Assembly (NCBI GenBank): GCA_019057865.1 | Contig: JAHLWP010000022.1 | Location: forward strand, 1-64,000 | Direction of reading: 5' to 3' | Origin: Promethearchaeota archaeon | GTDB lineage: Archaea > Asgardarchaeota > Lokiarchaeia > Sigyniarchaeales > SOKP01 | DNA length: 64,000 bases | Part shown: positions 34,762 through 34,914 of the stretch, in pieces | Layout: every line of letters begins with the position of its first letter | How positions within the stretch are numbered: the first letter of the stretch is position 1 | The notes under the pieces: generated by a model | What the model saw: only the letters and a program-made list of their open reading frames with translations | Database searches by the model: none | What the model was told of the DNA's origin: nothing | Translations under genes and position numbers: made by a program

Positions 34762-34914
34762 TCGTGAAACGGTTATCGAATTTAAATTTAATATTAATAT
34801 ATTATTCTAACTATAAAAATCAAATTTTATTAATTCGGATTGCCAAATTTACAATCAAATTTTAGTTGGTTCATCTAATAAGAGTATTAAGTATATGAAA
34901 TCGTGAAATAACCG
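34762..34914 (+). repeat. Paired-site element, copy C (TCGTGAAA-CGGTTA ... TCGTGAAA-TAACCG)
   Basis: Sites at 34762-34775 and 34901-34914; interior homologous to copy A. Confidence 0.88.

Follow-up and report, generated by a model that had tools for sequence, protein, structure and literature searches.

The closest known system to the arrays described here is that of the Acinetobacter dif (pdif) modules, followed by the IMEX elements and the integrons. The pdif modules are found on Acinetobacter Rep_3 plasmids and in chromosomal dif-module islands, are served by XerC/XerD, and are bounded by Xer-type sites that have a common 6-bp spacer and alternate in orientation, which gives two module types (PMC13141974, PMC6449649). 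They are discrete, occur in varied contexts with breakpoints at the sites, and include modules with no ORF as well as many with toxin-antitoxin pairs. Modules join in pairs, an adjacent pair being the unit that is excised, identical spacers are required, and the replacement of a single module between replicons has been proposed to proceed via cointegrates (PMC13141974). The IMEX elements, i.e., the CTX and TLC phages and the gonococcal island, enter the bacterial dif site using the host recombinase in trans. Their successive insertions at one complete site leave, next to the active site, hybrid sites of one orientation with one poor arm, and the reaction may be a single-strand exchange that is resolved by other means. 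Tyrosine-recombinase sites in which only one arm and the core are conserved also include the sfx sites of the shufflon (Rci) and the engineered one-arm mutants lox66 and lox71, where the asymmetry of the arms favours some reactions over others. Integrons and CALINs (IntI, attI, attC), which have been reported in Archaea too (PMC9668308), gather small, promoter-poor cassettes beside one primary site.

The window, i.e., the whole stretch of 64,000 nucleotides analysed here, represents contig C42 of an Asgard (Promethearchaeota) MAG of 4.26 Mb and 29% GC, referred to as G000. It contains three elements of ~150 bp which we regard, with a probability of roughly 0.6, as gene-free linker modules of a cassette array that is built by site-specific recombination and driven by the host XerA. 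By analogy, such arrays would work like those of the pdif family, with which they share the 6-bp spacer, the Xer-type sites, the alternating orientation (62 of 80 pairs here), the discrete and sometimes ORF-less modules, the toxin-antitoxin-like pairs, the replacement of single modules and, in the model proposed, excision in pairs, but they would not be members of it. While pdif sites are two-armed, only the complete site has the full 8-6-8 structure here, and the internal sites retain just the arm distal to the complete site. The latter is present once, at the end of the array, and arrays are two-armed and mirror-image around it. Furthermore, one of the module types is nearly always a curved linker of fixed length, no inverted modules were seen, and the host is an archaeon (Promethearchaeota MAGs) with a single XerA, the arrays being located on large contigs of defence islands rather than on small plasmids such as the Rep_3/OrfX plasmids of Acinetobacter. 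They differ from IMEX in having ~12 look-alike complete sites in the genome of the window rather than one chromosome-resolution site, alternating cores, small cassettes in place of phages, and a two-armed array. They differ from integrons in having no IntI and no folded attC, the opposite order of motifs, genes facing both ways and bidirectional growth. A full-text literature search for the site sequence found no paper, and the literature searched, including that on Asgard mobile elements and archaeal integrons, held no description of such a system. Within that literature, the one-armed layout with alternating cores, combined with a curved linker of fixed length, is without a described counterpart.

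Sites, linkers and cargo in the window

The complete site is an 8-6-8 palindrome consisting of the arm TCGTGAAA, a 6-bp central region and the inverted arm. An arm followed by the core CGGTTA is designated an L box, an arm followed by the core TAACCG an R box, and the complete palindrome F. The three elements noticed in the sequence-only reading (copies A, B and C) were recovered at the same positions, including the core TAACTA of B, and the features of the window are as follows:

1568–1719, forward strand: linker A, with L box 1568–1581 (arm variant TCGTAAAA), non-coding interior of 124 bp and R box 1706–1719
1720–8437, both strands: cargo of 6.7 kb between the R box of A and the L box of B
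8438–8590, forward strand: linker B, with L box 8438–8451 (arm TTGTGAAA), interior and degenerate R box 8577–8590 (core TAACTA)
8591–15390, unstranded: cargo with a flavodoxin, a NurA/HerA-like pair and an ATPase-nuclease pair
15391–15437, forward strand: solo L box (15391–15404) and conserved ~33-bp block with a TATA-like centre, without an R partner
31929–31942, forward strand: degenerate L box, core without its first C, followed by the same ~33-bp block as at 15391
34072–34085, forward strand: degenerate L box upstream of an AbiV gene (34140–34700)
34762–34914, forward strand: linker C, with L box 34762–34775, non-coding interior of 125 bp and R box 34901–34914
34915–35881, reverse strand: last cargo module before F, with a single 282-aa ORF (34971–35819, minus strand)
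35882–35903, unstranded: complete 8-6-8 site F, made up of arm, core CGGTTA and inverted arm, at which the array ends

The window consequently reads L-R (A), cargo, L-R (B), cargo, the L box at 15391, the degenerate L boxes at 31929 and 34072, L-R (C), a one-gene cargo and F. No box was found between F and the contig end, and F is the only full copy with a CGGTTA core in the genome. Exact 13-mers numbered five against 1.17 expected, a count reached in none of 100 shuffles. The boxes are 138 bp apart in A and 139 bp apart in C, in agreement with the spacing of 138–139 bp first reported for the three copies. The interiors of A and C, described at the outset as homologous and non-coding, are 69% identical and both lack an ORF. 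The cargo between A and B comprises genes for a carboxylesterase, a CCG/Fe-S protein, a DsbA-like and a TrmO-like protein, along with unknown ORFs, on both strands. No Pfam family was assigned to the 282-aa ORF next to F.

Two observations concern individual modules. The AbiV (HEPN) gene stands alone between the degenerate L box at 34072 and the L box of C, and is a single defence gene packaged as one module. The ~33-bp block, which has a TATA-like centre and a small internal dyad and directly follows arm and core, occupies positions 15405–15437 and 31943–31975 of the window, and occurs also at L013:3491, L014:5017 and 13599, L039:511, L056:10656 (minus strand) and L058:4288. It follows other cores in genomes G014 and G015, and stands in all behind three of them (CGGTTA, CGATGA and TGATGA), as if one module end or accessory site had been fitted to differing complete sites.

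Array rules and exchange of modules between genomes

The genome of the window contains five linkers, A, B and C being three of them. The other two are located on the minus strand of contig C34 (13318/13179 and 22643/22507), and the solo boxes of the genome cluster on C34 and C42, with a single orientation within each contig. Searching the genus with a gapped pattern revealed further pairs in G001, G044, G048 and G052, those of G018 and G012 being obtained from retrieved loci and a BLAST search. Scanning the species-representative genomes yielded linkers in more Promethearchaeota-type MAGs, along with ~3 matches in high-GC bacterial MAGs, a number in line with chance. Altogether there are ~25 non-redundant linkers (~30 before the removal of near-duplicates) in at least 12 Asgard MAGs, and in all of the non-redundant ones the boxes are 136–139 bp apart. 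Their interiors fall into families that can barely be aligned with each other, and the length between the boxes is still 122–125 bp. It had also been proposed that the two arms of a copy change together. The shared variants of A and B are real, but they do not reflect a rule, as these two alone among ~17 variant-arm linkers have the same variant in both boxes. In the G012 orthologues of A and C the L and R arms differ, with other arm variants in the L box; together with the mostly differing L and R arms, this is consistent with an L arm moving along with the module upstream of it.

In the related genomes, boxes are ~1 kb apart and form dense arrays. L and R boxes alternate in 62 of the 80 adjacent same-strand box pairs from six loci, the complete site being counted in, and the remaining 18 pairs are exceptions. 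The gap from L to R is a linker of 136–139 bp in 28 of 32 cases and cargo of 0.9–2.6 kb in the others, whereas the gaps from R to L are cargo and range from 31 to 6732 bp. Each half-site in an array consists of an arm, on the side away from F, and the shared central region, which reads alternately CGGTTA and TAACCG. Within one side of an array all arms point toward the complete palindrome, and past F the boxes are on the opposite strand. This strand flip is two-sided in G044 L015, L037 and L052, with one-sided evidence in G000, G018 and L045. At six loci with a complete site the end of the array follows a rule: R-cargo-F where F reads CGGTTA, and L-linker-F where F reads TAACCG. The L-linker-F form was predicted from the integration model and then found in L037, L045 and L052; the layout around F of the window is repeated at five other F loci in other MAGs. 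The cargo, mostly 0.6–7 kb in size, consists of defence, toxin-antitoxin-like and accessory genes facing both ways, examples being AbiV, PD-(D/E)XK and NucS-like nucleases, a STAND NTPase, an HD protein, a ParA-like ATPase, small gene pairs and metabolic genes.

Comparison of the genomes demonstrates that modules are discrete units. One linker family has 79–95% identity at five loci of four genomes, and this homology begins and ends precisely with the outermost bases of the L and R boxes, the flanks being unrelated on both sides. Linkers A and C have copies of 95% and 96–97% identity, respectively, in G012:C69, where the flanks differ; there the copies of C (96%) and A (95%) are 840 bp apart, around other cassettes, whereas 33 kb separate them in G000. 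A Na/Ca-exchanger cassette of 1.26 kb is 92% identical, from R box to L box, in G012, G001 and G044, although the linkers on either side of it differ among these three genomes. In G000, the exchanger is represented only by a box-less paralogue (86%) at another place. The 14 bases shared at the joints are too few for ordinary homologous recombination, and the joints are thus most likely site-specific crossovers in or beside the 6-bp core. All of the evidence for shuffling comes from the comparison of consensus MAG assemblies, in which neither excised circles nor empty sites nor a second arrangement in the same population were seen. At this level of comparison the modules are shown to be discrete and shuffled, and the layout rules hold across loci.

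Three further observations were made during these searches. CGATGA-core half-sites in many MAGs of the genus often stand a few hundred bases or less from the end of a contig; the assembly seems to break off at such sites, which may reflect population-level rearrangement or repeats. Contig L037 (JANBVM010000001.1), labelled Patescibacteria group bacterium AMOR_Bin_1762, is 75 kb long and contains a complete two-armed array of these sites. It has 26% GC, its ORFs are 59–61% identical to proteins of G000, and the contig is probably of Asgard origin but was placed in a bacterial bin. Lastly, a repeat of 343–356 bp with 98–99% identity and without a clear ORF is present on the minus strand of C34 in G000 (12824–13179, 22153–22507 and 52481–52837), with partial copies at C34:63705–63796 and C56:13214–13305. 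It starts exactly at an R box and ends in a G-rich block present five times in the genome, and could be a repeated module or a site-targeting element.

Candidate recombinase, linker structure and alternative explanations

The arm-6-arm layout is that of the Xer/dif-type sites of tyrosine recombinases (PMC2958812). Each genome encodes one bona fide XerA (240 bits with the NCBIfam model NF040815, cut-off 220), whose best PDB match is the XerA of P. abyssi, and in the array-bearing G012 nothing else matches PF00589. Serine recombinases were not found in the five array-bearing genomes tested, no gene for a tyrosine or serine recombinase was found in or beside any array, and the array contigs have no PF00589 match. 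The P. abyssi enzyme cuts at the spacer borders, works without FtsK, and carries out strand transfer from one half-site to another in vitro (PMC3646895, PMC8371274). The host XerA is therefore the best candidate enzyme for the arrays, although the link is circumstantial, since no recombinase gene is located in or beside them.

The linker lacks a hairpin fold. The whole window gave no match to Rfam at gathering thresholds. Single-strand folding, suggested in the sequence-only reading as a means to detect an attC-like hairpin, showed both strands of A, B and C to be no better folded than shuffled sequences (z of −0.2 to −0.9), only 6–7 bp of the cores being paired. An RNAalifold consensus of ten diverged members of one linker family reached −1.9 kcal/mol, with no covariation or compensatory change. 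What the linkers do have is a rhythm. AA/TT dinucleotides recur every 10.5 bp in 25 linkers (z=10 relative to shuffles, z=6 relative to genomic windows that are as AT-rich), and their phase relative to the L box is inside a 154-degree arc in all 25, although these statistics overstate independence because the linkers are related. The family-corrected test was weak (p ~0.09), with global-alignment clustering placing all linkers in one cluster, into which they collapse because the sequence is AT-rich. The rhythm resembles that of curved DNA, as judged from sequence, and 138 bp corresponds to ~13 helical turns. A curved linker of fixed length and in helical phase would hold both half-sites in a set relative position, and might be the smallest partner module, obligatory for exchange in the way that dif modules are added in pairs, might offer a binding platform to an architectural protein, or might lock both half-sites.

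Several other explanations were considered for the 150-bp elements. The main idea at the outset was an invertible switch; on this reading, a recombinase would turn around the ~125-bp segment that separates the inverted cores and so switch a promoter or the complete site on and off. In its favour, the cores are inverted relative to each other, the palindrome of 35882 is restored on paper when the interior of C is turned around, and a short, phased and curved linker would favour contact between both boxes. The arms, however, are repeated in direct orientation and the inversion is limited to the 6-bp cores, so that a flip would produce one complete site and a dead one lacking its arm, and could hardly be reversed. 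The flipped form that was to be sought in related genomes was not seen: all ~30 copies from at least 12 MAGs are in a single state, and no armless core was found ~139 bp from the complete sites of G000, G018 and G044. Interiors are not conserved across families, the neighbouring downstream genes face either way, no recombinase gene is nearby, and a switch is improbable. In the shufflon, sfx sites are inverted as whole units and do invert; in the arrays described here the arms are repeated directly, inverted orientation is confined to the cores, and inversion was not seen. The second suggestion made initially, a minimal non-autonomous element that uses the site, was partly right: the element is a discrete unit with unrelated flanks, and the palindrome is the parent site of both boxes. 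In its specific form, a MITE-like miniature transposon that targets the palindrome and is moved by a transposase encoded elsewhere, it would account for a discrete 150-bp unit with many copies and unrelated flanks across genomes. Such a transposon is nevertheless unlikely, as the terminal inverted repeats are only 6–7 bp, the flanks have no target-site duplication, the cargo cassettes have identical box borders and are equally discrete, and the copies are confined to polar arrays, never dispersed, with no associated transposase.

A non-recombining role would be that of paired operators, in which the arm is a half-operator of a DNA-binding regulator, the palindromes are its regulon, and the phased 138-bp spacing permits looping by a repressor. 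The 12 palindromes of the genome with their strict 6-bp spacer agree with this, as do the helical phase of the boxes, the curved DNA between them and the TATA-like runs after several boxes. Yet homology between genomes stops exactly at the boxes, arm polarity follows the position of the complete site and not the direction of the genes, the 6-bp core is conserved in the half-sites, unlike a spacer, and most palindromes are located after stop codons, not before genes, all of which makes operators an unlikely explanation. An attC or CALIN of integron type, recombined as a folded single strand by an IntI-like integrase, is suggested by the cassette array, the ~1-kb cassettes, the toxin-antitoxin-like gene pairs and the reported enrichment of integron-like arrays in Asgard archaea (PMC9668308). 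This explanation is by far the least probable, as the order of the motifs is reversed: on either strand GGTTA comes first and TAACC last, while attC has RYYYAAC at its 5' end and GTTRRRY at its 3' end. Only 6–7 bp can pair, the folds do not surpass those of shuffles, and ten diverged copies show no covariation. Moreover, there is no IntI, XerA reaching 96 and 60 bits against integron-integrase cut-offs of 265 and 435, and the cassette genes face both ways.

A proposed model for array growth, and complete palindromes elsewhere

If the elements are linker modules of an XerA-driven cassette array, XerA would bind the arms and cut at the border between arm and core. A monomer on a single good arm would cut one strand only, at that same border. 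Productive pairs would need the same combination of arm and core, as offered by two L boxes, by two R boxes, or by a box of either type and the matching strand of F. Pairing through a single good arm would explain both the shared arm polarity within each side of an array and the presence of both core orientations on both sides. These reactions of like with like would insert, delete or swap modules rather than invert them; inversions between L and R would be unseen because they would require the missing arms. Because adjacent sites have opposite cores, a cargo circle could leave or enter only together with a neighbouring module of the opposite type. The linker would be the minimal partner of this type for a cargo circle, its fixed length and curvature setting the geometry of the half-sites. 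A circle with one L and one R that enters F via either L or R would reproduce both of the end forms observed, and the series would end at one F, where a mirror-image array on the other strand can start. The replacement of a single module would need two crossovers, and can be likened to that of the dif modules via cointegrates. Cargo modules also move alone, without a fixed linker partner, which weakens the role of the linker as an obligatory partner. Pairing of L with one half of F and of R with the other half, in a composite synapse, was rejected, as tracing the strands on paper gives a hairpin-ended chromosome.

All of the cleavable arms are on the same strand, and modules may therefore be exchanged by single-strand transfers. 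Combining these points, we propose, at what we judge to be even odds, a gene-collecting platform of Asgard archaea (Loki-type). F would be the growing point of two mirror-image arrays, the half-sites would be one-armed with alternating cores, the curved linker of 136–139 bp would be the minimal partner that sets half-site geometry, and modules would possibly be exchanged by single-strand transfers finished by replication or a junction resolvase. If this is true, the closest prokaryotic relatives of eukaryotes would gather and reshuffle their defence and accessory genes by a defined site-specific mechanism for which only the housekeeping recombinase of the host is needed. The Xer-exploiting modules known from Acinetobacter plasmids would extend to archaeal chromosomes, and the building of Asgard defence islands would be explained. 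The arrays may also account for part of the integron-like arrays counted in Asgard MAGs.

Palindromes consisting of arm, six bases and inverted arm, with up to one mismatch per arm, number 12 in G000, compared with 0–3 for the other spacers (2–5 and 7–11 bp), and are the most recurrent non-trivial 8-6-8 palindromes of this genome. Their cores vary and are mostly GC-rich, and most of the sites are located just after stop codons. For several of the core types, a single copy is conserved in many genomes of the genus, and only the CGGTTA type has half-site copies in G000. Other genomes have a few half-sites with the CGATGA core, and the clearest of these half-sites, in G015, again points to its complete site. 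F was considered as the single chromosomal dif, a possibility rejected in view of the 12 look-alike palindromes in G000 and the several per genome across the genus. Ten further solitary palindromes of G000 (C14:29807, C18:81089, C19:530, C23:182972, C37:18329, C41:172901, C51:3593, C54:74780, C60:25245 and C75:44091) are mostly 11–60 nt after stop codons or between convergent genes. They may be spare attachment sites, the true dif or something else, and the 12 dispersed palindromes, which mostly follow stop codons, could instead be sites of a DNA-binding protein other than a recombinase.

A palindrome of the same family is present 2.7–2.9 kb upstream of xerA in G000 (C87:45404, L054:1405) and in G012 (C35:13405, L032:4406). 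A general linkage between xerA and the palindrome was rejected, as it was seen in these two genomes only and is absent in four others. The two sites have identical flanks, while the core is inverted and that of G000 is one base longer, a difference that reads as a small in-place flip of the spacer between inverted arms.
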